Positions 40,873-64,000 are shown, counted from the first letter of the stretch. The stretch is DNA of 64,000 nt from Nitrospirota bacterium (GCA_040753615.1 JBFMDO010000075.1:308-64307); one strand, 5' to 3'. The notes: generated from the sequence alone by a model not told the origin. Translations and numbers: made by a program.

Positions 40873-40893
40873 AACCCTGAAAAGGAGGTTTTT

Positions 40894-42102: not shown

Positions 42103-42112
42103 AAATCCACCC

Positions 42113-42153: not shown

Positions 42154-42165
42154 ATAGGAGGTATT

Positions 42166-43128: not shown

Positions 43129-43136
43129 AATTAGTC

Positions 43137-43171
43137 ATGAGTGACGGGCTTTTTACCCGCCCGTCACTCAT
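43137..43171 (+). promoter_or_regulatory. 13-bp perfect hairpin (atgagtgacgggc / gcccgtcactcat, 9-nt loop) between the LPP20-like and transglutaminase genes
   Basis: Read directly. It starts 9 nt after the stop at 43128 and contains the GTG at 43141 that opens the downstream ORF. No clear U-tract. Confidence 0.5.
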
Positions 43172-45335: not shown

Positions 45336-45446
45336 TCTTTATGTTGCTCTTTATTTCCTATGCCTCTAAAAAGCCTGTCCGGACTGAGGCGGATAGCGAG
45401 ATGAGGCAGGATAGAAAAAATAGACACGAAAATTATTAAAAATTTA

Positions 45447-45593
45447 ATGATACCGAAACCAGATGTCATTGAGCAATCTCACATAACATCCATTCTTTCC
45501 AAAGCCGATAAAAAAATACAAAAAGAACAAGTTAAAAGGAAACAATTATCCCAAGAGGAAGTCCTTGAAGGGTATTTTCCATACTGTAGATAA
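45447..45593 (+). pseudogene. Possible fragment of a type I R-M specificity subunit (HsdS conserved-region-like), 48 codons
   Basis: MIPKPDVIEQSHITSILSKADKKIQKEQVKRKQL resembles the HsdS motif (I/V)P(L/I)PPLxEQxxIxxxLxxxDxxI. There are stops upstream in frame. Confidence 0.3.
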
Positions 45594-45731
45594 TCGCGTC
45601 AAAGGGAAAGCAGATGATATTTTTAAGGGGGTGATATAGAATATCTATAAGTCTATAAGAGGAAAGGTATTTGAAGGATATAGGGTTATTCTCTTGCTCT
45701 GTGATAAAATAGTTTCAAAAGAAGGATTTGT

Positions 45732-46145
45732 ATGTTCAGAGATATAAAAGATACGGAAATATTTACAAGATTGGCAGATTTTTTGGGGGAAACGCCTGAA
45801 GTTTTGCTTGTCTTTCTCTTTGGATCTGCAGCAAGCAGGAAAATGGCAGAAGGAAGCGACATAGATATTGGAATCCTTTTTGAATACAAGCCTGATGTTC
45901 ATGAGATTAATAAGCTTGAAAGTAAATTGAACTCGATATTTAAAAGAGACATTGATATTGCTGTCTTAAATTCTGCTTCGCCTATTTTAAAGATGCAAGT
46001 CTTAAAAAATGGTATTTTGGTTTTTGCAAAAGATAAAAGGATTTATACCCAATTTTATGTGGATGCAATCAATCAATATGATGATTTAAAACAGACGAGG
46101 AAGATATGTGAGGATAATATTCTGAAAGGAAGAATATATGCCTGA
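45732..46145 (+). CDS. Nucleotidyltransferase-domain protein (MNT-type antitoxin family)
   Basis: LFGSAASRKMAEGSDIDIGILF (GS…DxD NTase motif). 137 aa. Confidence 0.85.
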   Translation: MFRDIKDTEIFTRLADFLGETPEVLLVFLFGSAASRKMAEGSDIDIGILFEYKPDVHEINKLESKLNSIFKRDIDIAVLNSASPILKMQVLKNGILVFAKDKRIYTQFYVDAINQYDDLKQTRKICEDNILKGRIYA

Positions 46146-46173
46146 TAAGGATGTTGTTTTTGCAAAGCAGTAG
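46138..46173 (+). pseudogene. 11-codon remnant of the expected HepT/DUF86 partner (MPDKDVVFAKQ*)
   Basis: The ATG overlaps the MNT stop by 8 nt, as is typical of MNT-HepT operons. The N-terminus resembles DUF86 starts. There is a premature TAG and no DUF86-like sequence afterwards. Confidence 0.35.
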
Positions 46174-46325
46174 AGGAAGTATTGGTGGATGTAGGGTTAT
46201 GAAAATGAAGGGTAATTTTATCTCTTTAATCAGTCACGGTATTGAAGCTATTCTTGTACCAAAAAAGGTTATTTTAATAGAAAAGGAGTTAATCAAGTAA
46301 TCATACACCATGTGAGGGGGTAAAA

Positions 46326-48614: not shown

Positions 48615-48626
48615 GGAGGTTAGGAT

Positions 48627-49694
48627 ATGGCTAAAAATATTATGAAAATGCGGTGGATATTACTCTTATGTGTTTTTTTGTTGTTCTATCCTGTTTCTTC
48701 TGAGGGTGCTGTAAAGGGTATTGGTAAGATAAGTAATCTCAGCGGTAAAGTCTTATACAGGGAAAAATCTGATATCCCTTATCTTGCTGTGCAAAAAGGG
48801 GCAATAATTTCCAAAGGTTACTGGATAAAAACCGGCTCCGATGGCTGGGCTGTGCTTGCATTAAATGACGGAAGCAGCCTTACCCTCGCAAACAATACAG
48901 AGCTTGAGATAACAGAATTAGTTATTGGCAAAAATAAAAAAAGCGGGGTTTTCAGTATGACACAGGGAAAACTCAGGGCATCTGTGGTTAAGCTCGCAGG
49001 TGAAAGGGTGGATTACAAAGTGAAAAGCCCTACAGCAGTAGCAGGGATTAAAGGAACTGAATTTATGATGATGACACAAGGACATGCTAATGTATTTTTC
49101 GGAAACAAGGGAAAGGCAAAGATATCAGGTTATGATACTTCAGAGAAAACTCTGAGTGTTGATACCATGGTTCAAAATACAAGAGGATATTCGCCTACTA
49201 ATCCAGTGAAGATTGAGCCAGATACCCCACTTCACACAGCAAAAAAGAATTTCGAGGAGATAACAGGGATAATGCCTCCAGAGGACTGGGAGCTTTCAGG
49301 TAATCTACCCAACATTATAGCAAGGTGGAACATAAACTATGGGCATTATTTAGCAGATTCAGGAAGATACAATGATGCCCTTTATGTATTTCAGATAGCC
49401 CTTGATTTAACAGCCCTTCCGGAAATAAGGAGTGACGCGCGCCTCGAAAGAGGAGCAGTTTATTCCAGATTTTTGAATAATCCAGAGGCTGCATTGGCTG
49501 AATATCTGCTTATACTCGAGGAATACCCTGTTGTTCCACAGAGGGAAAATGCACTATATCTTACAGGGATGACGCTTTATGAGCTGGGCTTTAAACCTGA
49601 GGCAAAGGAGAGATTATTCCAGTATAAAAGAGAATATCCTTCGGGGAAATATATAGGCAATGTGGAGACTTTATTAAATGTGCTTGAGAGATAA
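48627..49694 (+). CDS. FecR-domain exported protein with C-terminal TPR-like repeats
   Basis: Signal peptide. GKISNLSGKVLYRE…TGSDGWAVLALNDGSSLTLANNTELEI…SPTAVAGIKGTEF. Confidence 0.8.
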   Translation: MAKNIMKMRWILLLCVFLLFYPVSSEGAVKGIGKISNLSGKVLYREKSDIPYLAVQKGAIISKGYWIKTGSDGWAVLALNDGSSLTLANNTELEITELVIGKNKKSGVFSMTQGKLRASVVKLAGERVDYKVKSPTAVAGIKGTEFMMMTQGHANVFFGNKGKAKISGYDTSEKTLSVDTMVQNTRGYSPTNPVKIEPDTPLHTAKKNFEEITGIMPPEDWELSGNLPNIIARWNINYGHYLADSGRYNDALYVFQIALDLTALPEIRSDARLERGAVYSRFLNNPEAALAEYLLILEEYPVVPQRENALYLTGMTLYELGFKPEAKERLFQYKREYPSGKYIGNVETLLNVLER

Positions 49695-49702
49695 TATAAA
49701 TT

Positions 49703-51817
49703 ATGAAAACCCGCCGATTATTTATCCTATCAATAATAGGGATTGTCTCAGCCTTACTGACGATTTTTCTTTATGCAAAGAATTTTGACTCCTTTTATGC
49801 CATTGATTTAAAACTAAGGGATGTAAGGTTCAAGACAAGGGGAGATATAAAACCTGACAGTAGAATTGTTGTTGTTGCAATAGATGCAAAAAGCATTAAT
49901 GAACTCGGAAGATGGCCATGGGACAGAAAAATAATCGCGCACCTAATAGAAACTCTTAAGTCATATGGTGTAAAGACTATCGCCCTTGATATCGTCTTTT
50001 CAGAACCATCCAATTCTGAATCTGATAAAGCCCTTTCAGAGGTTATCAGAAAAAGCGGCAATGTAGTTTCAGGCTATTTTTTTAGACACGAAGAAGAAAG
50101 TAAATCGGATACAGTGACGGAATTGCTCCAGCACTCGAGAATAAAGGTTGTAAGGGTTCAGGAAAATGTTACAGAAGTGCCTGTTTTAACATACCCTAAT
50201 TTGGAGACAAATTTGGCTCTTATCTCAAAGGCATCTGTCAGCTCCGGATTTTTTAATATCATTCCTGACAGAGACGGAATCATAAGGGTATCCAACATGC
50301 TCATGCTTTATGAGGGGGATATATATCCATCTCTTGCCCTTTCTGCTTTACGCCATTATCTTGGAAGCGAGATTATTCTTGATATTGCTTATTATGGAGT
50401 GGATGGACTTATTATTGGAGACAGAAAAATTCCTGTGGATGAATCAGGCAGATTTACTCTTAACTATTATGGCAAACAGGGGACATTTAGAACCATCTCT
50501 GCAGTGGATGTGATAAGAGGCAAAAGCAATAAAGATGCATTAAAAAACACTCTCGTTTTTATAGGAGCTACTGAGATAGGAATTTATGATATGAGGGCTA
50601 CCCCTTTAGACCCTGTGCTCCCTGGTGTTGAAATTCATGCGACAGTTGCATCTAATATATTACAGAATCAATTTCTGATACGAGATGGCCGCGTGCAGAT
50701 GCTTGAAGTTGCTTTTATCATGATATTCCCCGTTTTGCTGTCTGTCCTTTTATGCCTTGTTCGCAGAACAATATATGCACTGATATTGTTTTTAGCTGTT
50801 ATAAATGTATATTTTTATTTTGATTACATCCCCTTTGCCTATTATTTCTTCAATACAAATGTTATCTACCCATTCATCTCTATCGGCATTACTTATGTTG
50901 TCTCTGAGGCTTACAGGAATCTGATAGAAGAAAGACATGGGCGTTTCCTGAAGAAGGCATTTAGTAGTTATGTATCTCCTGAACTCGTGGGTGAAATAAT
51001 AAAAAATCCGAATCTTCTTAAACTCGGCGGTGAAAAAAGAGAAATAACAGTCCTTTTTTTAGATATAAGAGATTTTACTGCTATATCTGAGAAACTTGTT
51101 CCTGAGTCCCTTGTTATGCTCTTAAACCAATTTCTTGGACCTATGACAGATATAATATTGAAGCACAAGGGAACACTTGATAAATATATTGGTGATGCCA
51201 TCATGGCTCTCTATAATGCCCCCCTTAAAGTAGAAGAACATCCATTAATGGCATGTAAAAGCGCTCTCGTAATGAGAGAGAGGCTCAAAGATATTAATAA
51301 AGATTTTAGTAAAAAAGGGTTGCCGGAAATTGACATCGGTATTGGCATAAATACAGGAGATGTTATTGTAGGAAATATGGGAACAGATATAAGGTTTGAT
51401 TATACTGCTATCGGGGATACAGTTAACCTTGCTTCAAGATTAGAAGGCATGAATAAGATATATAAAACACATATTATAGTGAGTGAGTTTACAGTTAGAA
51501 AACTCTCTGAACGCCGTACTATGAACTCCGAACTTAAATTCAGGGAACTCGATCTTATAAGGGTTAAAGGTAAAGAAAAGCCTGTTAAAATTTATGAGAT
51601 GTCTACCTCACTGGATGAGGTATTAATCAAAAAATTTGAAGGAGCTTTGGGTCTTTATAGAAGACAGCAATTCAAAGAAGCAGAGGAAAAATTTAAATGC
51701 CTTTCTGCTGAATATGGGGATAAGCCCTCAGACGTTTTTGCTGAAAGATGTACTGAATTTATAAACAACCCTCCAGAAAAAGAATGGAATGGTGTTTACA
51801 TAGCAAAAATAAAATAA
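49703..51817 (+). CDS. CHASE2-domain class III adenylate/guanylate cyclase
   Basis: N-terminal TM, CHASE2 (VVVAIDAKSINELGRWPWDR), three TM helices, cyclase core (ITVLFLDIRDFT…GDAIMALYNAP…IGINTGDVIVGNMG). Confidence 0.9.
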   Translation: MKTRRLFILSIIGIVSALLTIFLYAKNFDSFYAIDLKLRDVRFKTRGDIKPDSRIVVVAIDAKSINELGRWPWDRKIIAHLIETLKSYGVKTIALDIVFSEPSNSESDKALSEVIRKSGNVVSGYFFRHEEESKSDTVTELLQHSRIKVVRVQENVTEVPVLTYPNLETNLALISKASVSSGFFNIIPDRDGIIRVSNMLMLYEGDIYPSLALSALRHYLGSEIILDIAYYGVDGLIIGDRKIPVDESGRFTLNYYGKQGTFRTISAVDVIRGKSNKDALKNTLVFIGATEIGIYDMRATPLDPVLPGVEIHATVASNILQNQFLIRDGRVQMLEVAFIMIFPVLLSVLLCLVRRTIYALILFLAVINVYFYFDYIPFAYYFFNTNVIYPFISIGITYVVSEAYRNLIEERHGRFLKKAFSSYVSPELVGEIIKNPNLLKLGGEKREITVLFLDIRDFTAISEKLVPESLVMLLNQFLGPMTDIILKHKGTLDKYIGDAIMALYNAPLKVEEHPLMACKSALVMRERLKDINKDFSKKGLPEIDIGIGINTGDVIVGNMGTDIRFDYTAIGDTVNLASRLEGMNKIYKTHIIVSEFTVRKLSERRTMNSELKFRELDLIRVKGKEKPVKIYEMSTSLDEVLIKKFEGALGLYRRQQFKEAEEKFKCLSAEYGDKPSDVFAERCTEFINNPPEKEWNGVYIAKIK

Positions 51818-51836: not shown

Positions 51837-52205
51837 CTATTTAGACAGATATTCACTGACTATTTTTAGTAATTCCTGCGTCTGTATCGGTTTTGTGAGA
51901 TAATTACTAGCGCCTATAGCAATCGCCTTTTTTTTATCTTCTTCTGCACCTTCTGTTGTAATCATTATTACAGGGATATTTTTGTAAACAGGGTTGCTCT
52001 TGACAAGGCTCAATAATTTAAGTCCATCCATAACCGGCATATTTATATCCGCTAATATGATATCTATCTTTTCTGAAGACAATTTTTTTAAGGCGTCAAC
52101 ACCGTCATTTGCCTCAATAACCTTTGAATCAGGAATTCTTTTCATGGCAAAACTTATCAATTGTCGCATTGTTGGTGAATCTTCAACAACAAGGATAGTT
52201 GGCAT
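51837..52205 (-). CDS. cheY: CheY-like single-domain response regulator
   Basis: ILVVEDSPTMRQ…ILADINMP…TKP. Last gene of the che-like operon. Confidence 0.9.
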   Translation of the reverse strand: MPTILVVEDSPTMRQLISFAMKRIPDSKVIEANDGVDALKKLSSEKIDIILADINMPVMDGLKLLSLVKSNPVYKNIPVIMITTEGAEEDKKKAIAIGASNYLTKPIQTQELLKIVSEYLSK

Positions 52206-52222
52206 ATTCTCTCCCTTTTATA

Positions 52223-53047
52223 TCACTTTTTTGGCTTTTCCTTAAGAAGATCGAGGAAACTCTGTATGGTAGTAAGTTTCCTCTCAGACTGGGTATACAG
52301 CTTTGATGAAAATATTGCGGTTGCTGCATGACCTGCGAGCAGATTGAAAAGTTCATAATCCACATTAGTAAATCCAGCCTTCTGCACAAAAAGTGAATAT
52401 ATTGAGATAACCCCTATAACATGCTCTTTGATCTTAAGTGGTATGCATACTATAGGATTTTTGGTATCAATAGTCTCAGCATTATACATCATATTCTCTG
52501 AAAAATAGCTCTCTCCTTGCTTTGCCACTATGCCTATCCTGCCCTCACCTGTCTTTACCTTGGGCATATCACTCAAAGACAAACCCTCAGAAGCAGCAGG
52601 CAATAACTCATTCGTCTTTTCATCCATAAGATATAGTGCAAATTTTTCAGCGCCTATTAGATTAATAATTATCTCAAGGACAATCTTTAAAACCTCGTTA
52701 AAATCCAGTGTTGAATGAAGCTGATAGCTGGCAACATACAGATTAGCAAGGTTATTATTCTCTGTTTCTACTTCAATATATTTTGAAGCGAAGTCTTTAT
52801 TTTCATCCTCTACCTTCTTGTACCTTTCCATGAGTGAATTTATTTCATTTTCGAGCGCCTTTATCCTTTCCTCATAGAGTCTATTTTTTTCCTCATTCCC
52901 TGTTTTTTCAAGGGCTCCTTCAAGTTGAGCAACCCTGAATCTAAGCCTCTCATTCTCTTTAATCAGCTCCTTTGTGAACTCCTCTCCTTTCTTAAATACC
53001 TGAAGAAACTCATCTGCCTTTTTTAAAAAACCAGGCTCTCTTTCCAT
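52223..53047 (-). CDS. Coiled-coil + GAF domain protein
   Basis: The first ~100 aa are heptad-rich (LRFRVAQLEGALEK…). The C-terminal half is GAF-like (…FALYLMDEKTNELLP…PLKIKEHVIGVISIY). Confidence 0.75.
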   Translation of the reverse strand: MEREPGFLKKADEFLQVFKKGEEFTKELIKENERLRFRVAQLEGALEKTGNEEKNRLYEERIKALENEINSLMERYKKVEDENKDFASKYIEVETENNNLANLYVASYQLHSTLDFNEVLKIVLEIIINLIGAEKFALYLMDEKTNELLPAASEGLSLSDMPKVKTGEGRIGIVAKQGESYFSENMMYNAETIDTKNPIVCIPLKIKEHVIGVISIYSLFVQKAGFTNVDYELFNLLAGHAATAIFSSKLYTQSERKLTTIQSFLDLLKEKPKK

Positions 53048-54108
53048 TAATCATCTCCTTCTTTTTTTTCTATAACTAATTTTATTATTTCATCAGGTAT
53101 CTCAGAAAGGGGTAAAACCCTACCTGCGGCACCTGCCTTTATCGCTTCTCCGGGCATACCAAAAACAACAGCAGTATCTTCTGATTCTGCTATAGTATAC
53201 CCTCCTTGCTTTTTAATTTCCAGCATCCCTTGAGTCCCGTCGTTTCCCATACCGGTAAGTACAACTCCCATTGTTCTATTTCCAAAAATTTCTGCAGCGG
53301 ATATCATCATCATGTCAACAGAAGGTATATATTTATCTGCATTACTGGATTCTTTAATATTTGTAATTATTTTTCGCCCGGTTTTCCTAAAAGACATGTG
53401 ATGCCCTCCAGGACAGATAAGGACCTTGCCTTTTTCTATCTCATCACCTTCTTCTGCTTCTTTTACATGCAAGTTCGAGATTCCATTAAGTCTTTCTGCA
53501 AACGAGGCAGTAAAACCCCTTGGCATGTGCTGACTTATTACCACACCTGCAGGGAAATCTGATGGGAATCTTGAAAGTATAATCTTAATCGCCGCAGGAC
53601 CCCCTGTTGACGATCCTATAGCTATGGTTTCAATGCCACGTCCTGTCTTTTCTACATTTATTATCTTGGACTGTCCCTCTTCAAGGAGCTCGAGATTTTT
53701 ACTCAACCTATCCAGCCGCAACTGTTTTATTCCTCTTACCTTTTTCAATAAATCATTTTCGAAATTTTGAAGTTCTGAGGCTGCTCGGGGTGGTTTTGCT
53801 ATAAAATCAGCAGCACCGAGTTCAAGCGCTTTAAACACAGTCTTTGAATCAGAATATGAACTTAGAACTATTACAGGTATAGGATTGTTTTTCATCAGCC
53901 ATCTCAGGAAACTAAAACCATCCATCTTTGGCATCATGATGTCCAGTGTGATAAGGTCAGGCTTTAGCCTGATGGTTTTCGACATAGCGTCTATTCCATC
54001 CGTTGAAATTCCAGCGATATCTATATTAGGTTCTTTTTCAAGCGTTTTTCTGACAATCTGTCTGCTATACGCAGAATCATCAACAATAAGAACCCTAACT
54101 TTCGGCAA
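53047..54108 (-). CDS. cheB: Protein-glutamate methylesterase CheB
   Basis: REC (RVLIVDDSAY) plus esterase domain (IGSSTGGP, HMP, TGMGNDG). Confidence 0.95.
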   Translation of the reverse strand: MPKVRVLIVDDSAYSRQIVRKTLEKEPNIDIAGISTDGIDAMSKTIRLKPDLITLDIMMPKMDGFSFLRWLMKNNPIPVIVLSSYSDSKTVFKALELGAADFIAKPPRAASELQNFENDLLKKVRGIKQLRLDRLSKNLELLEEGQSKIINVEKTGRGIETIAIGSSTGGPAAIKIILSRFPSDFPAGVVISQHMPRGFTASFAERLNGISNLHVKEAEEGDEIEKGKVLICPGGHHMSFRKTGRKIITNIKESSNADKYIPSVDMMMISAAEIFGNRTMGVVLTGMGNDGTQGMLEIKKQGGYTIAESEDTAVVFGMPGEAIKAGAAGRVLPLSEIPDEIIKLVIEKKEGDD

Positions 54109-54984
54109 CTATAAGTCCTCCTTTTTTACAGGTTTTTGGTAAACCATATCATGCTTAAAATGCTTAAGCGTAAAGGCAGTAGATATATTTATAAGAGACT
54201 CAGCATGCCCCAGCAATAGATAACCTCCATCTGTAAGTCTCTCAAAAAACATATCTATGACCTTTTTCCTCGAAGGATAATCAAAATAGATTAACACGTT
54301 TCTGCAAAATATTACATCCATCGCTCCTACTAATTTTACCTTATAAGGATCGAGAAGATTTAGATGGCTGAAATTTACATATTTTTTGATGCTGTCTGAT
54401 ATCCTGAAAACACCATCTTCTTCCTGAAAATATTTATTAAGAAAATAAGGCTCTGTTGTCCGGAAAGAGTTTCTCCTGTATTTACCACTTCTTGCTACCT
54501 GTAGCACTCTTTGGTTAATATCACTTCCAAATATCTCTATGTCCCAACCATTGAATTTATCATTTTCACGTATAAACATGGCAATAGTATATGGCTCCTC
54601 CCCTGTAGAACAACCTGCAGACCATATCCTCAGTTTCTTAACCCCTTTATTTTTCTCCCTGAGTTCAGATAGTATCTCTTCATTAAAAGTAGTAAGTTGG
54701 TTTTGCTCCCTGAAAAAATATGTCTCATTAACTGTAAGGATATCTGTTATAATAGCAAATTCTTCCTCGCGGTTTTTATCATAGAGCAAATATCTAAAAT
54801 ATTCTCTAAAACTATTGAAGTGATGGGTTTGTACTCTCCTTGCAAGTCTCTTTTCAAGGAGATACTTCGAATCATCATCAAAATATATTCCGCAATAATC
54901 TCTTATAAGGTCTCTTATAAGCCTGAATACGTCTTCCGGCAGATGTATTAACGCTTCATTTTCTAATACCAATGCTCTCTTCAA
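54109..54984 (-). CDS. cheR: Chemotaxis protein methyltransferase CheR
   Basis: SAM-binding RIWSAGCSTGEEPYT…FCRNVLIYF. Confidence 0.93.
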   Translation of the reverse strand: MKRALVLENEALIHLPEDVFRLIRDLIRDYCGIYFDDDSKYLLEKRLARRVQTHHFNSFREYFRYLLYDKNREEEFAIITDILTVNETYFFREQNQLTTFNEEILSELREKNKGVKKLRIWSAGCSTGEEPYTIAMFIRENDKFNGWDIEIFGSDINQRVLQVARSGKYRRNSFRTTEPYFLNKYFQEEDGVFRISDSIKKYVNFSHLNLLDPYKVKLVGAMDVIFCRNVLIYFDYPSRKKVIDMFFERLTDGGYLLLGHAESLINISTAFTLKHFKHDMVYQKPVKKEDL

Positions 54985-56944
54985 CCGCCTTTTTTACTAC
55001 AGGATCTTCTTCTATATCCAGAAGTTTTTCGAGTTCATTTTTAATGTTTCTTTTAGACTTTCTTTTAGCCAATACTTCAATAGCAGCCATTCTGGTAGCC
55101 CAGTCCTCGTCTCTTAGAAATGGAATTATTTTTTCCTCTATGCCATCAAACGATGAAAGTGATTTTATCGCAGTCCTGATAATTTCTTTATCTTTAGAAG
55201 AAAGCTTGTGAATTAGGGCAGACCTTGCATCGCTCCCACCTATCATGCTTAATGACTCCATGGCTGTTGCAACAACAAACCCATTTTTATCAGAGAGCAA
55301 ACCAATAAGCGGTTTAATTGCCCTTTTATCTTTAAGCATTCCAATGGATCTTGCTGCTGCCCCTCTTACTGAATCATCTGAGTCAGCAAGAAGAATAGAT
55401 AATGCCTCAAAAACCCCATTGCCTCCTATTCGTCCAAGACTCAGAGCTGACATAACCCTTATATCAGGTTTCTCATCAGTTAGTGCGAGGATAAGAAATT
55501 TGATAGACTCCTCTGTCTTAATATTAGAAAAGGCGATAACAACAGCCTTTCTTACACTGATATTCCCATCTTTAAGTGCAAATCCCAGTGCTGGCACTGC
55601 CTCTTTTGCCCTGATTTTCCCAAGTAATAGGGCAGCGTTTTTTCTTATTGCAGGATTAGGATTATCAAGCATGCCTAGCAGTTCAGTGGTAGAAAGCCCA
55701 TCCCTTAAATTATAAAGTGCCTCTACTGCAAATTCCTGTACATCTTCGTATGAATCAGCAAGGAGTTTTTTTACAGGTTCTATTGCCTTTAGATTGCCGA
55801 GCTTGGAAATTGCCAGAGCAGCGAGGGACCGGATGTGTCCATCCTCATGCTCCAGTAGCTTTTCGAGGATATCGTAATAGACAGGGGCAGCAATTTTATC
55901 TGCGACTTCGCATAAGAAACGTTTCTGGGAAAAGCTCTCGGTCTCAAAAAGCCTTAGCAGAGATTCCGGGCTATCTTTCCCTATAAAGACAAATGCCCTC
56001 ATCACATCTTCTCTGAGATTTTCCTCCTGCGAAATTTCAAGCAGAGGAGTATATGCCCTTTCATCCTTCATCATCCCAAGGATAAGTATTGCAACTACTC
56101 TTACATCAGGCTTTTGTGACCATGCATGTGCAACTAATATATCAAGAACCTTATCACCGATAAGACTTTTTATCTCGTCTGTAATAAAATCCTCACTAAC
56201 CCCTTTATGATAAAATCTCTCTATGCTCCGCAGAGCTTCTTCCTGAATGGTCTTTGACGAGTCTCCTATAAAAGGCACTATATATTTCAATGTTTTTGGG
56301 TCTCCAATATAACTTAATGCCTTTATAGCCGGTTCTCTCAGCGTCTTTTTATCAAGTGCCTTTATCAGTGCAGGAATTGCCTTTCTGTCCCCAATTCTCC
56401 CAAGTGCATCAGCAGCAGGATAGGCGCTCCAGAGATCGCCACCCTTGAGAACTTCTATGAGAGAATCTACTACTGACGATTCGCCTACTTTACCGAGATG
56501 CTCTATGGCTGTAGCACGCACATTTTCATCTTCGTCTTTTAATGCATCGAGCATAAGCGGTAGGGATCTGCTGTCCTTGAATTCGCCGAGGATATCTATA
56601 ATGAATTTTCTTACATCCTTGTTAGGTGTGTTGAATGCCTCGATTAAAGAAGTTGTTACCCTTTTATTGAGTCTAACAAGCGCTTCTATTGCAGAATTTC
56701 TTGCGCCTGCGTTGTCTTCGCAATAAAGTAGCTGTATTAACCCTCCCACATATTTTTCAACAGGATAATCTTCAAGGAGGATATCTATAGCCGTATGCCT
56801 TATCCTCCAGCTTATATCTTTCATTCCGGATAGAAGAATATTTATGTAGCGATCGTTCGGCTTTCCCCTTATACTCTCGAGAGCGCCCCTTCTGATCTCA
56901 ACATCATTGCTCTTAAGGAGTTTTGCCAGATTCTCTATTCTCAT
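54956..56944 (-). CDS. HEAT-repeat (PBS-lyase-type) protein
   Basis: More than 15 repeats of the pattern D…VR..A..ALG.IGD..A...L over 662 aa. Overlaps both neighbours. Confidence 0.85.
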   Translation of the reverse strand: MRIENLAKLLKSNDVEIRRGALESIRGKPNDRYINILLSGMKDISWRIRHTAIDILLEDYPVEKYVGGLIQLLYCEDNAGARNSAIEALVRLNKRVTTSLIEAFNTPNKDVRKFIIDILGEFKDSRSLPLMLDALKDEDENVRATAIEHLGKVGESSVVDSLIEVLKGGDLWSAYPAADALGRIGDRKAIPALIKALDKKTLREPAIKALSYIGDPKTLKYIVPFIGDSSKTIQEEALRSIERFYHKGVSEDFITDEIKSLIGDKVLDILVAHAWSQKPDVRVVAILILGMMKDERAYTPLLEISQEENLREDVMRAFVFIGKDSPESLLRLFETESFSQKRFLCEVADKIAAPVYYDILEKLLEHEDGHIRSLAALAISKLGNLKAIEPVKKLLADSYEDVQEFAVEALYNLRDGLSTTELLGMLDNPNPAIRKNAALLLGKIRAKEAVPALGFALKDGNISVRKAVVIAFSNIKTEESIKFLILALTDEKPDIRVMSALSLGRIGGNGVFEALSILLADSDDSVRGAAARSIGMLKDKRAIKPLIGLLSDKNGFVVATAMESLSMIGGSDARSALIHKLSSKDKEIIRTAIKSLSSFDGIEEKIIPFLRDEDWATRMAAIEVLAKRKSKRNIKNELEKLLDIEEDPVVKKAVEESIGIRK

Positions 56945-57404
56945 TAACTATATCTTCTGACTCCTTTGTTTCCTTTAGCATTATCTTTTCCTCTGATGTT
57001 AGGAGGTCGTCTATATTGAGAAGGATTATTATCCTGTCGTCTTTCTTACCAATACCGGAAAGATATTTTCTCCTCAACCCTTTAAATATCTTGGGGGGGG
57101 TCGTTATTTCATCAGGAGCAAGCGATATTATGTCCTTTACTTCATCTACAAGAAGCCCGATCTTCTCAGCATCATACCGTATTGTTATTATGCGGTCTTG
57201 CTTTTTCACAGAAGATTGGATGCTAAACCGCTTTCTTAGGTCAAGAAGGGGTATTATTTCACCCCTTACATTTATAACACCTGAAAGAAATTCAGGCAGA
57301 TCAGGCAGTGTATAAATCTTTTGTGTTTTGAGTATTTCAACAACCCTTTTGATCTCTACTCCAAAATCTTCTTCACCTATCTTAAATATAGCAAATTTCT
57401 CCAC
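56913..57404 (-). CDS. cheW: CheW coupling protein
   Basis: FKIGEEDFGVEI…VINVRGEIIPLLDLRKRF…GLLVDEV. Confidence 0.92.
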   Translation of the reverse strand: MEKFAIFKIGEEDFGVEIKRVVEILKTQKIYTLPDLPEFLSGVINVRGEIIPLLDLRKRFSIQSSVKKQDRIITIRYDAEKIGLLVDEVKDIISLAPDEITTPPKIFKGLRRKYLSGIGKKDDRIIILLNIDDLLTSEEKIMLKETKESEDIVNENRESGKTP

Positions 57405-57453
57405 CTCATCTCCCCTTTTCCAATCTTATAAGTCTGTTTTCTTACTTGTCTCT

Positions 57454-60348
57454 CTAAAGCATTCCTAACTTCAACATCATAACCCTTACATTAGTATATT
57501 CATCGCCAGATGTCTCTTTAAAACCTGTATAACGTTTATATATTTCATGAAGGATTGAAGCCCCTTCAGGTGTTGCATCACTCAGTGATATGAGTGCAGC
57601 CTTTAAGGTATTTCTATCTTTTTCAGGCATTGTCCTGCTTGCGCATATACAGGATACAGGCAGCTCTTCAGAAAACTTTAAACATTTAATCCCCTTGTCT
57701 TTAAACTTATGTGCTATACCATCTGTAATACCACCTGCGTCAAACTTACCCTCTACCACTGCCTCTAATACCTCTTGTTGGGAAGCAAAATATTTATAAT
57801 AAAGCAAATCCTTACAGTCTATCCCGGCTTCAAGAAGCATAAACATAGGTGCTATATAGCTGGACACTGAATGCGGATCTCCAAAAGCAAATGTTCGTCC
57901 CTTGATGTCTTCTATAGAATTTATCCCACTGTTACTCCTCGTTATAATAACTGACCGATAAGTTGACTTTCCTTCTGTCAATGCCTTTACAAGGGGTTGC
58001 ACGCCGTATTTCTTATTTGCTTCCACATATGTAGTTGGAGCCATATAACAGGCATGTGTAATACCGTAACCTATATCTCTTATGGCGCTCTCATACCCAG
58101 AAACTGGCTTTAAGTTAACCTTCCTGCCAAGTTTCTTGCTGAGGTATTCAGCCAATGGAGCGAATCTTTTTATTGCCTCCACAGGTGATATGCCAACAGG
58201 CTCTATTCCAAATCCGAAGACATCTTCAGACATATCATAAACCGTGCTTTCTTCATAGAGCTTAAACCTTTCTGTCTCTTTCGCTACGATCTCAATACTT
58301 CTGAACAAACTTCTCATAGAAAGATTTATATTATATACTGTGTTCATAGTATTTTTAGGTATTTCCTTTATCTTCTCCACAGACAGTAATATCTGTGACG
58401 ACCCTGTCTTTTGCTCACTGACAGACGTGGCTATCTTTTGACTTTCTCCTGTCACAAATTCTACAGAACTGGATATACGTTTGGCAGTTGTGAGCTGTTC
58501 AGACGTTGCGGTCTTAACCTGAGTGGTAACGTCCCTAACTTTTTCTGCTGCCTTTGCAATAAGGGAAACGCCTTTATTCTGTTCGGATGTAGCCATTGCA
58601 ACCTGCGATACCATATTTTTTACCCTTTCCATTGAAGCCGAGACAAACCTTGTTGCCTTTGTCTGCTCTTCTGTTGAGCGGTCTATAGCCAAAGCCATAT
58701 CTGCTGATTGTTTAGACACCTCTATTATCTTTTTTAGTGCATCGCTTGCTCCATCTGCAACCTTTAATCCATCTCCTACTGATTTTAATCCTTCATTCAT
58801 TGCCTGTATGGCGTCCTTTACCTCTTTTTGGACAGTTTGTATAAGAGAGGCTATTTCCTGCGTTGAGAGGGATGTCCTCTCTGCAAGGTCTTTTATCTCA
58901 TCAGCAACAACAGAAAATCCCTTGCCATGTTCGCCTGCCTGCGAAGCAAGAATAGCTGCATTTAAGGCAAGCAAGGTTGTCTGATCAGTTATTTCCTCTA
59001 TAACATTTAATATCTTGCCTATCTCGTTAGATCTGCTGCCGAGTTTCATTATTAAATCTGCTGTTTTTTCTACTGATGATTTAATATTCTGCATTCCTTC
59101 GATTGTCTTCTCTACTGATCTTATTCCAAAAGAGGAGGCATCATTTTTGACCTTTTCTGAAAACATTGCAGATTTTTTTGCATTCTGTTCCACTTCTTTA
59201 ACAGAAGACAAAATTTCCTCTGTTGCAGCGAGCGTCTCCTCTGATGAGGCAGTAAGTTCTTGTGTCCTCTGTACAATTTCTTTTGTTGTTGCAGACAGCT
59301 CCTCTACAGAGGTTGTTGTAGAGTCAACCTCAACTGAAAGTTCTTGTGTAATCTTTGCAACCTGACTTATACTTGTAACCATTTCAGACATTGAAGCGGA
59401 TGTTTCCTCTGCTGAGGCTGTAAGATGTTCGGCAATTTTCGATATCTCTGCGGCGGCTGAATTCATTTGTTCCAGAGAACTTGCTATATTGGCTATTGAC
59501 TCAGATTCGAGCTTTGAACTTTCCGAGACCTTTTCGAATTCAGTCTCTACTTTTTCAGAAACCTCTAAAGCTTGTTTTGAGCTACCCTTGATCCGGTTAA
59601 TGACTCCCCCAAGAGAAAATATAGAGGTATTGATGGACTTGCTAAGCCTTCCTATCTCATCTTTTGATTTAATAGCCACTTTAAAAGAAAGATCTCCTTC
59701 AGCTATTGATTGGCAGGCGGTTTCAATAGATCGTATCGGTGATAACACAATCCTTCTTAAGATAATCCAAAAAAAAAGAGTAAATGCGGCAATGCCAGCT
59801 ATTGAGATTATAGTAGTCCATAAGATAAAGCTCAAACTTTTTCCATAAATCTTTTCGAGTGATGCCCCGACTTTAACAGCGCCTAATATTTTGCCTTCCT
59901 GTGCATGGCAGCTCTTGCAATAAAGAGTGTTTTCAAATGGCTTATAAAACACAATGGTCTTATCAGATTTGGATAAAAATGGGGCAGCGGTTTTAGATAT
60001 TTTTTGCATAACATCCGCTTCTGTTACCTCAGAGGTTTTATTAAATGCCTCCCTGCCCTCTGCATTCAATATTTTAACTTCATCTATGCTTTTTACAGTC
60101 TTAAGTCCATTAATAATCTCATTGGACACCAGAGATTTTTTTTCGACCGTCTCGTGCATAGCCCTCGTGATGTCAATTGTAACTATGGTAGCCACTGCAT
60201 CTAAGTTTTCTTCGGCTGTGGAATAAAGATTATTTTTAAAATATGCAGATACAGAAAGGGACCAGATAATGCCGGCTATCAAAAGAACCATCACAAAAAT
60301 CATATATCGTAGTTCGAGTCTTTCACGTACAAGGTTTATAACATTCAT
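57454..60348 (-). CDS. Methyl-accepting chemotaxis protein with a periplasmic CxxCH module, HAMP, MCP signalling domain and a C-terminal PhnD-like substrate-binding-protein domain
   Basis: Two TM helices. CKSCH at aa 144-148 (nt 59905-59919). HAMP. Signalling hairpin (…[34 protein letters not shown]…). The last ~270 aa match the PhnD/phosphonate-binding pattern (…[10 protein letters not shown]…[15 protein letters not shown]…). Confidence 0.88.
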
Positions 60349-61103
60349 AAACTTATCGCTACTGCCTCTTCCATATTTATTATGGATGTAAAACGATTGC
60401 CTATTACAGCTACACCCCCTATAAACTTGAGTTCCGCCTCTGTAAGATGCGCAGGTGGAGGCTTAACCTCAGTCTTTGCAATTCGAGCAACACCCACTAC
60501 TTTATCTACTATTATGCCGATTGGTCCTTTTGTTCCCTTGATTATCAGTATCTTACACTTCTGATCTATATTCGGGAGTTTGTCTGTAAGTGAAAGTCTG
60601 ACCTTAAGGTCTATTACAGGGATAACCTTGCCTCTTAGAGAAGTTAGCCCAACAACATAATTGGGCGTCTTAGGAACCATGGTTATCCTCTGATATCTTA
60701 ATATCTCTGCAACCTGAGAGATTTCAAAGGCAAAATCTTCTTTTAGCAGGCTAAAAAGAACTAACTCAACAATATCATCAGGCATTTCTTCTTCAATTTC
60801 AGCTTTAGCCTTGACAGGTTCTTCCCTTATCTCTTTTTCCTCTGTTATTTCCGCTTCCTGAGTAAAGCCAGCCGATGTTTCTGTTAATTCTGGTTTCTTT
60901 TCTTCAGCTTCTGTATGCGGTACCTCTTTACCTTCTGTTTTATCTTCTGCCTTTTCTGGTTCGGGGGTCTTTTCCTCAGGCTTTACCTTCTTGCTGTCCT
61001 CTACCTTTTGATCATTGACTTCAGATTGCTGGCTTTCTTTTGTTTCTTTCAGCTTTTTTCTAATTTTCGCGATATCCATTGAGTCCAAGCTCCCTCGCTG
61101 CAT
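60345..61103 (-). CDS. CheW-like domain protein with a ~110-aa K/E-rich disordered N-terminal extension
   Basis: C-terminal [12 protein letters not shown]…[16 protein letters not shown]…GIIVDKV. The start may be the ATG at 61079. Confidence 0.85.
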
Positions 61104-61878
61104 TATTTATAATATATTCATCTATAGATTTTAGCGATTTTCCAAATCCTTCGAGGAGTGCCGATGTAGCAATATTATTTATCATTCTCGGTATGCCACC
61201 TGAGTATTGATAAATTTTTTTAATCGCCTCATCTGTAAATAAAGGATGTCCAAGACCAGAAACCCTCAGCCTGTGATTTATATAATCTTCTATTTCATCC
61301 TCTGTTAAGGGCCCAAGATGATAATATAGTCCGATCCTTTGTCTTAAAGGAAGGTATGTTTTATGATTTAACCTTCTTCTCAGGTCTGTCTGTCCAACGA
61401 GTATAAGGCTGAGAAGGTTTGTATCATCAAGCTGAAAGTTAGTAAGGAGTCTTATTTCCTCAAAGGTGCCTTTGCTTGGTATTAGTTGTGCCTCATCTAT
61501 GATGATTACTGGACATATCCCTGACTCATAGTCCTTATAGACCTTTTCGTAAATTGCCTCAAGTAAATTATCTTTAAAATTATAAGGGATATCTAAATCA
61601 AACCGCTTTGCAATCGTTCTCAAAAATTGAAGAGGTGTTAGCATTGGATTTATTACCAATATTATCCTGTGCTTTTCATCGAGAGAATCTATCAATGCTC
61701 GTGTAAGCGTGGTCTTCCCACTGCCTATTTCGCCTGTAAGCAATATCAGTTCCTTTTCTTCAACTGCATATTGCAATCTCGCTAAGGCTTCTTCATGGGT
61801 CTTGCTTAAAAAAAGAAACCGAGGATCAGGTGTTTTTGTAAAAGGCTTTTGTTTCAAGCCGTAAAAATCTTCATACAT
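61060..61878 (-). CDS. ExeA/GspA/MshM-like AAA ATPase (AAA_22 type)
   Basis: FYGLKQKPFTKTPDPRFLFLSKTHEEALARLQYAV…LTGEIGSGKTTL, Walker B VIIIDEAQ. Overlaps cheA (8 nt) and the downstream cheW-like gene. Confidence 0.8.
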   Translation of the reverse strand: MYEDFYGLKQKPFTKTPDPRFLFLSKTHEEALARLQYAVEEKELILLTGEIGSGKTTLTRALIDSLDEKHRIILVINPMLTPLQFLRTIAKRFDLDIPYNFKDNLLEAIYEKVYKDYESGICPVIIIDEAQLIPSKGTFEEIRLLTNFQLDDTNLLSLILVGQTDLRRRLNHKTYLPLRQRIGLYYHLGPLTEDEIEDYINHRLRVSGLGHPLFTDEAIKKIYQYSGGIPRMINNIATSALLEGFGKSLKSIDEYIINNAARELGLNGYREN

Positions 61879-63832
61879 AAGATACGCCTTCCTGTTTTAC
61901 TAAGGATTTCTCTATCAGGGACTCAACATCAAGGACGAGTATAACCTCATGCTTGCCTATCTCCGCTGCACCAGCGAAACCGCTTAGCCCTTTAAAATAT
62001 TCACCGAGCGGCTTTATAACAATCTCTTGTTGCCCCAGAAGTTCGTCTACAAGAAGTCCTAACTTTCTTTTACCAAGACCTAAAACAACACCGAATGATA
62101 TGTCGCCCTCCGCAGTCTCTATATTGAATATTTTACCTGCACTCATTACTGGAAGCATTTCTCCTCTGAGGTAATACACATATTTCCACTCTATAGTCTG
62201 AATATCTTTATGTTCGATTACTACTGTTTCTGATAATGCTGTTAATGGTATAGCAAATTTCTCTGTGCCAACTCTCACAAGAAGCGCTTTTATTATTGCG
62301 AGTGTGATCGGGAGAGTAAGCGTGAATGCTAATCCTTCATCTTTCTTAGTATAAACCTCTACAAAGCCGCCCATTGCAGAAAGTTTTTCTTTTACTACAT
62401 CCATGCCTACGCCTCTTCCTGAAATCTCGGTTACAGTATCCTTTGTGCTAAATCCTGCTGTAAAAATGAGATCAACCGCTGTCTTCTCATCAATCACGGC
62501 GTTGGGTTCGAGTAATCCTTTTTCTATAGCTTTTTTTCTGACCTTTTCCATATCAATGCCCCTGCCGTCATCTATTACCTCGATTACGACGTGATTCCCC
62601 TTCTGAAACGCCTTTAAAGTAATTTTACCGGCTTCTTTCTTCCCCTTAGATACTCTCTCCTCAGCCGTTTCTATACCATGATCAATTGAGTTTCTTACAA
62701 GATGCATAAGGGGGTCAACTATCTCTTCAGCCAGCGATTTGTCAATCTCTGTATCTTCGCCGTAAAGCATAAGATTTATTTCTTTCCCCATCTCTTTTGA
62801 ATAACGCCTTATCACCTGTGCAAGCCTTGAAAATATCTGACCTATTGGAACCATCCTTATTTCAAGGACTTCATCCTGTAACTCCAGAAGCTTTCTTTCA
62901 AACGTCTGAGAAATCTTATGGGCATCACTCACAAGCGGTGAATAGCGATATGCATCGGATAACTCTGTACTGATTCTCTTAACAGCATCCTTTGCGAGGG
63001 TAAGCTCGCCTATTGTATTTAATATTCTATCAAGTTTATCTATATCAACCCTTACAGTAGTTGCTGCACTTTTAATAGAGCTTTCAAGTCTTCTGGTCTG
63101 TGGCGCCCCTGCCTGTTTTGATTGAACAAGTACGTCTATATCGCTTCCTATTTCTTCTTTTATCTCATTTATTGGATGCCCGCTGGTAAATAAAAGATTA
63201 AAGCCTATATAGCCGTCAGGTATATCTGTGGATGTAGGAAGTGTGGATATAAGTTCACCTTTTGATTTTATCTTCTTTGTCATCTCATCGAGCAATGTGT
63301 CAAAGTTAGAAAGTCCAAATACTGCCTTTGCAATATATATACCCTTGCCATCTTTTATATTTGCCTTAAGCCTGTGTTCCTCATATTCTGAAAGAACCTT
63401 TACTATGGACTCATCTATAACGCCTTGAAGATTAAAACTCTTATCACCTGCTTTTACTGATTCCCTGAAATTCTTTATTCCATCTATATGTTCTGTTAAA
63501 TCTGTTTCTTTGTCTTCCTTAATATTATCAATAGCAGTTTTCATTACATCTATGTTTTTAAAAAGGAAATTTACTACATCATCAGTTACATCCATCTTCC
63601 CGAGTCTTATGTCATCTAATAATGATTCGAGGGCATGGCTGAGATTTGTTATCCCCTGACTTCCAAAGAGTCCTGAAAGTCCTTTTAGCGTATGCATTGA
63701 CCGGAAGAGTGCATTAATTGTATCAGGATTTATTTCTGTCTGGTAAGTATCCTGTATCTCAAGCAATAGTTGCTGGGACTCAAACAGGAGGTCTTCTGCT
63801 TCTGCTACAAATTCTTTTTTAGATGCCTTCAT
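61871..63832 (-). CDS. cheA: Chemotaxis histidine kinase CheA
   Basis: Hpt (FRSMHTLKGLSG), dimerisation domain, HATPase (DDGRGID, GRGVGMD), C-terminal CheW-like domain. Confidence 0.95.
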   Translation of the reverse strand: MKASKKEFVAEAEDLLFESQQLLLEIQDTYQTEINPDTINALFRSMHTLKGLSGLFGSQGITNLSHALESLLDDIRLGKMDVTDDVVNFLFKNIDVMKTAIDNIKEDKETDLTEHIDGIKNFRESVKAGDKSFNLQGVIDESIVKVLSEYEEHRLKANIKDGKGIYIAKAVFGLSNFDTLLDEMTKKIKSKGELISTLPTSTDIPDGYIGFNLLFTSGHPINEIKEEIGSDIDVLVQSKQAGAPQTRRLESSIKSAATTVRVDIDKLDRILNTIGELTLAKDAVKRISTELSDAYRYSPLVSDAHKISQTFERKLLELQDEVLEIRMVPIGQIFSRLAQVIRRYSKEMGKEINLMLYGEDTEIDKSLAEEIVDPLMHLVRNSIDHGIETAEERVSKGKKEAGKITLKAFQKGNHVVIEVIDDGRGIDMEKVRKKAIEKGLLEPNAVIDEKTAVDLIFTAGFSTKDTVTEISGRGVGMDVVKEKLSAMGGFVEVYTKKDEGLAFTLTLPITLAIIKALLVRVGTEKFAIPLTALSETVVIEHKDIQTIEWKYVYYLRGEMLPVMSAGKIFNIETAEGDISFGVVLGLGKRKLGLLVDELLGQQEIVIKPLGEYFKGLSGFAGAAEIGKHEVILVLDVESLIEKSLVKQEGVSYV

Positions 63833-64000
63833 AATTTAATTGCCTGCTTTATAACTTCCTGAAGTTCATGTGCCTTGAAAGGTTTGGTAATATATGCCAT
63901 TGCACCCAATGCAATACCGCGATTTCTATCCTCCTCGCTTCTCTCTGTGCTGACAATTATTAAAGGAATGTGACTGTACTTAGGATTATTCTTCATGAAG
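63829..64000 (-). CDS. CheY-like receiver, C-terminal part only (cut by the window edge)
   Basis: The reverse translation reads …KYSHIPLIIVSTERSEEDRNRGIALGAMAYITKPFKAHELQEVIKQAIKL*. Its TGA overlaps the cheA ATG (ATGA). Confidence 0.8.
   Translation of the reverse strand, partial: FMKNNPKYSHIPLIIVSTERSEEDRNRGIALGAMAYITKPFKAHELQEVIKQAIKL

Follow-up and report, generated by a model that had tools for sequence, protein, structure and literature searches.

A Nitrospirota Che-like operon with a predicted haem-sensing receptor, assigned by gene order to a cassette conserved across phyla

A 64,000-nucleotide (nt) stretch of the genome of a Nitrospirota bacterium (GCA_040753615.1, JBFMDO010000075.1:308-64307; hereafter the window) carries on its minus strand, at positions 51837-64000, one tightly packed operon of 11 genes for a chemosensory (Che)-like pathway. 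Gene order and sequence similarity place this locus in a cassette family that is conserved across phyla and to which, by gene order, the 'beta-group' or Esn cluster of Geobacter belongs. We read it, with a probability of about 0.6, as a redox-responsive, non-swimming Che pathway that would act on a pilus/secretion-type or matrix-export machine. We are far more certain of what the cassette is than of its output, for which such a machine is the leading guess.

Open reading frame (ORF) calls combined with Pfam and NCBIfam searches recovered ten ORFs in full and an eleventh by its 3' end only, and together with recomputed junctions they bear out the gene order, domains and overlapping or abutting junctions proposed in an earlier sequence-only reading of this DNA. 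In 5' to 3' order of the operon the genes are:

63829-64000, minus strand: cheY1, 3' part only, last 56 codons, receiver (REC)-like
61871-63832, minus strand: cheA, 653 amino acids (aa), with Hpt, weak P2, dimerisation, HATPase_c and CheW-like P5 domains
61060-61878, minus strand: AAA_22 ExeA-like ATPase, 272 aa (Pfam AAA_22, 86 bits)
60345-61103, minus strand: cheW1, 252 aa (244 aa from an alternative start), CheW domain at residues 113-247
57454-60348, minus strand: methyl-accepting chemotaxis protein (MCP), 964 aa, with HAMP, MCPsignal (136 bits) and C-terminal Phosphonate-bd (199 bits) domains
56913-57404, minus strand: cheW2, 163 aa (CheW, 121 bits)
54956-56944, minus strand: HEAT-repeat protein, 662 aa (HEAT_2, 298 bits in 10 stretches; HEAT_PBS, 135 bits)
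54109-54984, minus strand: cheR methyltransferase, 291 or 287 aa (CheR, 202 bits, plus CheR_N)
53047-54108, minus strand: cheB methylesterase with receiver, 353 aa (CheB_methylest, 220 bits, and Response_reg; NCBIfam CheB, 384 bits, above cutoff)
52223-53047, minus strand: coiled-coil GAF protein, 274 aa (GAF_3, GAF_2 and GAF at residues 114-245; weak coiled-coil matches at 15-100)
51837-52205, minus strand: cheY2, 122 aa, last gene of the operon (Response_reg, 101 bits)

The full-length cheY1, whose start codon lies 215 nt past the window edge, is found on an overlapping public contig (L001, 9618-10004) and encodes 128 aa with a Response_reg match of 96 bits, giving the operon a complete Che parts list of CheA, two CheW, an MCP, CheR, CheB and two single-domain CheY proteins. 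The Hpt, dimerisation, HATPase_c and CheW-like domains of CheA all score above their Pfam cutoffs, the NCBIfam CheA models match as well, and a fused receiver is absent. CheW1 begins with a K/E-rich and probably disordered extension of ~110 aa, and cheW2 has a GTG start with GGGGAG 5' of it. Successive junctions measure -4, -8, -44, -4, +49, -32, -29, 0, -1 and +17 nt (negative values being overlaps), the first two being the overlaps of cheA with cheY1 and with the ATPase gene; alternative starts chosen by the public gene caller reduce the -44 to -20 and the -29 to -17. The overlaps had been listed correctly beforehand, but the gaps of 49 nt between the MCP gene and cheW2 and of 17 nt between the GAF gene and cheY2 were missing from that list. 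Most members have a Shine-Dalgarno-like motif within the 3' end of the preceding gene. A promoter and terminator scan inside the operon gave no signal above shuffled expectation, and an Rfam scan of the window returned no RNA family. A sigma-54-like TGG...TTG string upstream of cheY1 was rejected as a promoter since it directly abuts the cheY1 start codon.

To define the distribution of the cassette, one genome per species was scanned with an ATPase alignment, 80 loci were kept (L002-L081), and tblastn and blastp were used to place the window proteins on them. Homologues of the ATPase number in the thousands, and in the 120 top-ranking clusters identity to it is 72-83% throughout. The names attached to homologues of the window proteins point to Nitrospirota as the source, probably Thermodesulfovibrionales. 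All 39 loci in which ATPase identity is at least 48% (L002-L040) have the order cheY-cheA-ATPase-cheW wherever the contig reaches, and the long ones go on with cheW-HEAT-cheR-cheB, usually followed by GAF-cheY. By contrast, no che gene lies near the ATPase in any of the 41 loci with identities of 46% or less (L041-L081). Neighbour joining groups all 39 che-linked ATPases in a single clade, which also takes in one extra tip, the 46% identical ATPase of a metagenome-assembled genome labelled Firmicutes (L041, 9470-10261), located on a short contig with no che gene in the 9.4 kb upstream. The che-linked loci span Nitrospirota, Geobacteraceae/Desulfuromonadales (including the cultured Oryzomonas japonica), Acidobacteriota, Thermoanaerobaculia and unclassified 'Deltaproteobacteria'. 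Exceptions among long loci are L030, which has cheY-cheA-ATPase only, L032, the sole related locus of sufficient length without a HEAT gene at the same position, and several Geobacteraceae loci that stop at cheB. Even the 8-nt overlap of cheA with the ATPase gene recurs in L002 and L082 (Nitrospirota) and in the deltaproteobacterial L021, and the N-terminal extension of CheW1 is long in all related loci (proteins of 215-330 aa).

Identity across phyla is high for the ATPase (51-60%), CheY1 (51-62%), the GAF protein (50-61%), CheY2 (56-65%) and CheR (~50-55%), and lower for CheB (~43-46%), CheA (37-42%), CheW (~30-35%) and the HEAT protein (~28%). The ATPase, HEAT and GAF genes and the second cheW and cheY are thus kept in order across phyla, indicating that the 'non-canonical' members are core members; the sequence-only reading had named a lack of conservation of the extra genes in orthologous operons as counting against it. 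Variation is concentrated between the two cheW genes, where an extra CheY (Geobacter type), zero, one or two MCPs, or other genes are found. The number of MCP genes varies more than any other feature of the cassette, with none in Geobacteraceae loci and one or two elsewhere, and the single dedicated MCP is not the hallmark that it had been taken for.

The closest described systems are the Geobacter beta-group/Esn cluster and the Che8 system of Myxococcus xanthus. Tran et al. (PMC2577667) defined 'beta group' che clusters without mcp genes in Geobacter, Anaeromyxobacter, Stigmatella, Plesiocystis and M. xanthus, cited unpublished work in which beta-group knockouts alter the extracellular matrix, and noted that all Geobacter che clusters are unlinked to flagellar genes. 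Chan et al. (PMC5585712) subsequently reported transposon sequencing (Tn-seq) defects on electrodes for GSU2220 (CheW, esnB), GSU2221 (ATPase) and GSU2222 (CheA, esnC); clean esnB and esnC deletions fail on electrodes with normal Fe(III) oxide reduction, and the authors proposed as partners EsnA, a GAF-containing class 40H MCP whose gene is unlinked, and the diguanylate cyclase EsnD. GSU2223 is a CheY and GSU2224 a response regulator in which a Tn5 insertion leads to oxygen-tolerant biofilms (PMC8242959). From CheY (GSU2223) through CheA and ATPase to CheW, the published order of this cluster (GSU2212-2224), which has the response regulator GSU2224 upstream, is that of the window. Our Geobacteraceae/Desulfuromonadales loci (ATPase identity 51-55%) read [PATAN-REC]-cheY-cheA-ATPase-cheW-(cheY)-cheW-HEAT-cheR-cheB, the PATAN-REC gene occupying the position of GSU2224. 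This order is matched in L020-L022, L027, L028, L031, L033-L035 and L037, and in L032 apart from the HEAT gene; in four of these (L020, L021, L035 and, judged from position, L022) GAF-cheY or a cytochrome comes next. The window differs from the Geobacter clusters in having an in-cluster MCP of 964 aa between cheW1 and cheW2, in lacking a PATAN gene, and in lacking the extra CheY and the zinc-ribbon-REC protein of Geobacter-type cassettes. The latter protein (~270-320 aa) is encoded between cheW2 and HEAT in Geobacter- and Acidobacteria-type cassettes, examples being:

L035, 12519-13487: zinc-ribbon-REC gene
L021, 12521-13444: zinc-ribbon-REC gene
L017, 11689-12513: zinc-ribbon-REC gene
L011, 8459-9361: zinc-ribbon-REC gene

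Che8 (MXAN_4751-4759) was compared with the window by gene layout rather than by sequence. It runs CheY8b-CheA8-CheW8b-CheW8a-(two unlisted genes)-CheR8-CheB8-CheY8a and likewise has no receiver fused to CheA, but its locus numbers leave no ATPase slot between CheA8 and CheW8b and there is no mcp gene in the cluster. The M. xanthus Che7 system had previously been offered as the parallel, and it does share with the window a che cluster containing a PBS-lyase-type HEAT-repeat protein (Cpc7), whose regulation by the pathway was addressed by Darnell et al. (2014), a paper cited in PMC6194562. Moine et al. placed Che7, Che8 and Dif in one phylogenetic group, and Che7 and Che8 are related but distinct. 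None of the eleven window genes has a desaturase domain (Pfam). Che7 comprises a desaturase (Des7) and one CheW and is not known to include an ATPase or GAF gene; Geobacter beta-group/Esn and Che8 are the closer analogues.

These systems bear directly on the alternative that the operon serves flagellar energy taxis or aerotaxis as a minor flagellar (F) class, in which the haem receptor would report redox state, the CheY proteins would bind a flagellar switch encoded elsewhere in the genome and the extra genes would be accessories of the receptor array. F classes typically have a CheA without a fused receiver, as here, both CheY proteins are canonical in appearance, with a complete CheY-type active site and the aromatic switch residue, and che clusters are often unlinked to flagellar genes, as is the case for every cluster in Geobacter. 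Moreover, among the rows listed in a MiST-based CheA table (PMC10782961), G. sulfurreducens has no CheA of the alternative cellular function (ACF) class and the ACF entries for M. xanthus are five REC-fused CheAs only, so that the likely orthologues GSU2222 and CheA8 would belong to some F class. On those rows, assignment of the window system to the ACF class appears doubtful. Other evidence points away from swimming. The cluster encodes no CheZ, CheC, CheX or CheD (Pfam scan of the operon proteins), and M. xanthus, which has no flagella, nonetheless carries the similarly laid out Che8. The G. sulfurreducens esn mutants have an electrode colonisation phenotype and otherwise normal growth (PMC5585712). 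The sequence-only reading had further claimed that the window contains no flagellar or pilus genes, which holds for ORFs of at least 150 aa at 17,119-64,000, the large ORFs of 1-17,097 not having been scanned. It had also named flagellar genes just beyond the window as a finding that would count against a non-motility role; no flagellar or pilus gene was found in the 10 kb past the edge (L001), nor any flagellar gene in the flanks of L082 and L083. On balance we consider a flagellar role distinctly unlikely.

The ATPase appears from its sequence to be a Che-dedicated AAA+ protein of the superfamily that contains ExeA/GspA, MshM and the PEP-CTERM-associated ATPases. It has a Walker A motif (GEIGSGKT, aa 49-56) and a Walker B motif (IIIDEAQ, aa 125-131), the motif residues being invariant in the ATPase alignment, and its likeness to ExeA/GspA, MshM and the TIGR03015 ATPases extends over the full length. 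Its score against TIGR03015 (XrtA/PEP-CTERM-associated ATPase), 240.1 bits over 264 of 269 model positions, lies below the 324.5-bit cutoff, as do those of che-type copies from other phyla (223-231 bits) and of non-che relatives (234-320 bits). Unlike the TIGR03015 family, the che-linked proteins form a separate clade always encoded between cheA and cheW. ExeA carries a membrane segment and a peptidoglycan-binding domain; the window protein, in contrast, has AAA-type domains only in its 272 aa, its neighbours are cheA and cheW, and no GspB partner is present. Public annotations name the che-linked ATPases TsaE, TadA or ExeA, all of which are misleading. Non-che relatives adjoin a GspB-like gene (L071) or genes for a TPR protein and an MshE-type ATPase resembling an MSHA pilus locus (L048), and in L045 and L060 a low-molecular-weight phosphotyrosine phosphatase as found in polysaccharide loci. 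Neighbours of this export type suggest that the wider ATPase family accompanies envelope-spanning export machines.

Structural comparison was less specific. A sequence search of the PDB with the ATPase gave matches at the P-loop level only. The AlphaFold (AF2) model has a predicted local distance difference test score (pLDDT) of 67, with a core near 80, and Foldseek matched this core, with TM scores of ~0.55-0.6, to the AAA+ assembly switches MuB, Cdc6/ORC and TnsC. Given a mediocre model and generic AAA+ matches, no specific function follows for the ATPase. The resemblance does fit a second alternative, in which the ATPase, HEAT and GAF proteins would be structural or assembly factors of a specialised array: an ATP-driven switch would load or position CheA and CheW on extra-long receptors, the HEAT protein would tether CheR and CheB, and output would pass through an unlinked regulator such as a diguanylate cyclase like EsnD. 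The 8-nt cheA/ATPase overlap in distant phyla suggests co-production of the ATPase with the core complex, HEAT and CheR occur in a single ORF in one locus (L014, described below), the cassette receptors examined have the same spacing from membrane to hairpin tip, and the unlinked cyclase EsnD shares the esn phenotype in G. sulfurreducens (PMC5585712). Against this, only the core of the ATPase model is predicted with any confidence, its fold matches are of a generic kind, and the extreme conservation of GAF-CheY2 is easier to explain as that of a signalling module. The array-positioning ATPases ParC and PpfA are of the ParA/MinD type and not AAA+ proteins. We regard this alternative as unlikely; it is compatible with much of the non-swimming pathway that we favour.

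The receptor has a construction for which the searchable literature offered no description, namely an MCP with a C-terminal Phosphonate-bd domain. Transmembrane helices at residues 15-36 and 174-198 bracket the sensor, and no transmembrane segment follows residue 202, which would make the C-terminal domain cytoplasmic. Its parts are:

59833-60240, minus strand: periplasmic PAS-like c-haem sensor domain, aa 37-172 (PF21563, 30.8 bits, cutoff 27)
58249-59613, minus strand: signalling hairpin, aa 246-700, with tip motif GEHGKGF at aa 472-478
57457-58221, minus strand: cytoplasmic PtxB/PhnD-like domain of binding-protein fold, aa 710-964 (Phosphonate-bd, 199 bits)

The sensor domain, of ~135 residues, scores above the cutoff of PF21563 (Mcp40H-20_sensor) and contains the haem-binding motif CKSCH (aa 144-148, nt 59905-59919). 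It matches PDB entries 3B47 and 3B42 (E ~3e-4), the solved sensors of the G. sulfurreducens MCPs Gsu0582 and Gsu0935 (Tran et al.), from which the PF21563 family was built and with which it shares the location between the first and second transmembrane helices of an MCP and an aligned CxxCH motif. CxxCH is invariant in 18 of 18 aligned MCP homologues that have the sensor domain, and from these motifs the MCP appears to read periplasmic redox state via haem. Sequence similarity to the Geobacter sensors is low, and unlike them the window sensor is joined to a hairpin of ~64 heptads and a C-terminal binding-protein domain. This hairpin length, an estimate from the arms (~228 residues from HAMP to tip and ~227 from tip to C-terminal domain) rather than from a class hidden Markov model, would be far above that of 36H-44H receptors; a literature search for '40+24H/64H' receptors found nothing relevant. 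Other cassette-encoded MCPs examined have the same ~280 residues between the second transmembrane helix and the hairpin tip. Residue pairs E314-E315, E589-Q590, E617-Q618 and E645-Q646 are invariant or nearly so and are candidate methylation sites, and the protein carries no C-terminal pentapeptide.

The C-terminal domain exceeds the TIGR01098 cutoff (126.5 against 112 bits), which accounts for the misleading public annotation of these MCPs as 'phosphate/phosphite/phosphonate ABC transporter substrate-binding protein'. Its closest match is the phosphite-binding PtxB (5O2J, E=2e-26), followed by ArrX, HtxB and AioX, the last of which sets a literature precedent for a signalling rather than a transport role. 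It differs from PtxB, PhnD, AioX and ArrX in its position at the cytoplasmic C terminus of an MCP, in lacking a signal peptide, and in the absence of ABC transporter genes from the operon (Pfam). PtxB ligand residues include S124, T125, S126, the His of an STS-H motif and two Tyr (PMC5700983). The Ser-x-Ser anion loop is kept, S124 and S126 corresponding to the invariant S827 and S829; the T125 position varies (Val in the window copy), as do both Tyr positions, and the motif His is retained in 21 of 23 family members. All of the best 120 MCP homologues (49-67% identical, and Nitrospirota where named) keep both MCPsignal and Phosphonate-bd, a variant of ~830 aa without the haem sensor being among them, and a profile-free search with the C-terminal arm and binding domain found ~25-30 distinct clusters at 50% identity among the best 150 with the same C-terminal fusion (830-1085 aa). 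Recurrence in so many clusters argues for a stable family and not an assembly artefact. The c-haem sensor and the unusually long hairpin had passed unremarked in the sequence-only reading, as had a family-wide PATAN gene that is absent here.

This gene, encoding a DUF4388/PatA_N (PATAN) protein, lies directly 5' of cheY1 in most related loci that extend upstream, including the closest relatives L002, L006 and L082. The Nitrospirota protein (~374 aa) consists of PATAN and a further C-terminal region, and that of Geobacteraceae and Acidobacteriota combines PATAN with REC, one copy also matching GAF weakly. Representative PATAN genes 5' of cheY1 are:

L082, 6506-7630: PATAN gene
L083, 6343-7464: PATAN gene
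L002, 6491-7612: PATAN gene
L035, 5841-7559: PATAN gene
L021, 5844-7538: PATAN gene
L017, 5604-7598: PATAN gene

Neither the window nor L001 contains a PATAN gene or remnant, even at E=10. PATAN domains bind PilB1 and PilC in Synechocystis according to the literature. By analogy, this binding, the presence of a PATAN gene before cheY1 in most relatives and the neighbours of the non-che ATPases are pointers to a pilus or secretion machine. Concerning the other accessory proteins, all named lyase and NblB models fall below their NCBIfam cutoffs for the HEAT protein. In L014, HEAT repeats (aa 3-338) and CheR (aa 350-642) form one uninterrupted ORF (12761-14719), which may be a natural fusion, with assembly error remaining possible; if natural, it suggests that HEAT works with the methyltransferase. 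A literature search turned up no later studies of the cassette's ATPase, HEAT or GAF proteins.

Some relatives embed cytochromes in or beside the cassette, which associates it there with redox processes and extracellular electron transfer. In the metagenome-assembled Nitrospirota loci L010, L015, L016 and L026 the variable slot holds a nine-haem cytochrome and an MtrB/PioB-like outer-membrane barrel, accompanied in three of the four by an ABC_sub_bind protein, and in the Geobacteraceae/Desulfuromonadaceae loci L020, L022, L035 and L037 a c7-type polyhaem cytochrome directly follows the cassette, that of L035 having a repetitive sequence with 15 CxxCH motifs in its visible 416 aa:

L026, 11542-15505: porin-cytochrome module between the cheW1 and MCP genes
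L015, 13643-17529: porin-cytochrome module between the cheW1 and MCP genes
L016, 14148-18040: porin-cytochrome module between the cheW1 and MCP genes
L010, 5375-7542: porin-cytochrome module between the cheW1 and MCP genes
L035, 18858-20105: c7-type polyhaem cytochrome
L020, 17800-19917: c7-type polyhaem cytochrome
L022, 16311-18443: c7-type polyhaem cytochrome
L037, 16518-18614: c7-type polyhaem cytochrome

In the pathway that we propose, the haem in the periplasm would set CheA activity via the two CheW proteins according to its redox or ligand state, possibly in concert with a small cytoplasmic oxyanion bound at the C-terminal domain. CheR and CheB would adapt the receptor by methylation, and the HEAT protein may tether them, a role suggested because the receptor lacks a C-terminal pentapeptide and the HEAT gene overlaps cheR. 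CheA would phosphorylate both CheY proteins, which would act on the ATPase, the GAF protein and, in most other genomes, the PATAN protein instead of a flagellar motor. The process most likely to be controlled would be colonisation of surfaces or minerals via a type IV pilus/type II secretion-like or matrix-export machine.

Several observations weigh against this proposal. The active sites and aromatic switch of the CheY proteins make a flagellar target compatible with their sequences, and in the rows given by the MiST-based table the likely orthologues from Geobacter and Myxococcus fall outside ACF. Orthology to the GSU genes is drawn from gene order and the Geobacteraceae loci and not from GSU sequences, G. 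sulfurreducens not being named among the 120 best hits of a protein search with the Oryzomonas ATPase, all of them closer Geobacteraceae clusters; in addition, EsnA is of class 40H as opposed to the long class estimated for the window MCP. With no PATAN gene in the window, the link to pili is weakest at this very locus. Ligand binding by the C-terminal domain of the window MCP is uncertain, given that the conserved pocket His is Gln there (Q857). Finally, most loci, that of the window included, have no cytochrome module.

A more far-reaching and less likely version, which we offer as tentative, would make the cassette a dedicated redox- and mineral-surface-sensing pathway with a previously undescribed output machine, in which phospho-CheY, through the Che-specific AAA+ ATPase, the coiled-coil GAF protein and (in most genomes) PATAN, would gate type IV pilus/type II secretion-like or matrix export and so decide when anaerobes such as Geobacter and Thermodesulfovibrionia colonise an electron acceptor. 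The Nitrospirota receptor would then join haem redox sensing with that of a cytoplasmic phosphorus- or arsenic-type oxyanion, using a domain borrowed from ABC-transporter binding proteins.

A last alternative looks to the genes around the operon. The 17-52 kb region of the window includes gyrA, mnmG, rho, several two-component proteins and, on the plus strand at 35190-51817 and convergent to the che operon, an envelope cluster. This cluster encodes PGA_cap, DUF3160 (898 aa), Memo-like, CsgG-like, SLH-domain and transglutaminase-like proteins, a GNA1162-like/NosD/TPR lipoprotein, FecR and a CHASE2 adenylate/guanylate cyclase, whose stop at 51817 is, as had been noted, 19 nt from that of cheY2. 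On the other side, 138 AT-rich bases separate cheY1 from a divergent polysaccharide cluster (L001, 1-9479) comprising APS kinase, rmlA, rmlC, an epimerase, a Wzm/Wzt-type ABC exporter, three methyltransferases and a glycosyltransferase. This cluster occupies the slot of the PATAN gene of relatives and may have reached it by insertion or rearrangement. Elsewhere in the window, a histidine kinase gene at 27277-29853 (minus strand) encodes PAS and HisKA/HATPase_c domains and a Tll0287-like domain, the last presumably of the c-haem PAS-like sensor family, and may be a second haem-based sensor; REC-HK (25161-26435) and REC-HD (23572-25116) genes lie downstream of it.

Adjacency on both sides, with the 19-nt convergent and 138-nt divergent gaps, and a GAF fold compatible with nucleotide binding could indicate that the operon works with these neighbours, the GAF protein reading the nucleotide made by the CHASE2 cyclase and the pathway regulating the CsgG/SLH/transglutaminase envelope cluster or the polysaccharide cluster. 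However, tblastn placed neither the CHASE2 cyclase, FecR, TPR lipoprotein, transglutaminase and CsgG-like genes nor the upstream APS kinase, Rml, Wzm and Wzt genes beside any che-linked locus, the sole partial exception being a weak, distant CHASE2-like match in L030. The closest relatives have PATAN upstream and other genes downstream, and the GAF sequence, inspected by eye, shows no NKFDE motif, which characterises GAF domains that bind cyclic nucleotides. What flanks the window operon on either side is not conserved beside the cassette elsewhere, which removes the functional link to the CHASE2/envelope cluster suggested by the sequence-only reading. Coupling to the neighbours is very improbable, and appears largely refuted by the lack of conserved linkage among these loci.

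The cassette itself is already visible in the Geobacter and Myxococcus literature and databases, and no categorically new principle emerges from it yet. What is new is its spread through Nitrospirota and Acidobacteriota, the strict linkage of the ATPase clade to che genes, the PATAN, zinc-ribbon-REC and cytochrome-module variants, and an in-cluster receptor combining a haem sensor, a long hairpin and a binding-protein domain, the last of which, placed at the cytoplasmic C terminus of an MCP, represents a new architecture. Multiple Che-like pathways without a known output are a long-standing gap in bacterial signalling, and here the ATPase, HEAT, GAF and PATAN proteins are four conserved proteins that stand outside any chemotaxis model, the ATPase, GAF and CheY being more conserved across phyla than CheA. 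The cassette is widespread in sediment and groundwater anaerobes, its genetic phenotype in the one organism tested is electrode colonisation, and some cassettes embed porin-cytochrome genes. Conservation, phenotype and cytochrome modules together provide a concrete, testable link of chemosensory signalling to extracellular electron transfer or surface attachment, and the cassette offers a well-defined, genetically tractable route to what non-flagellar Che pathways control in metal- and sulfur-cycling anaerobes.

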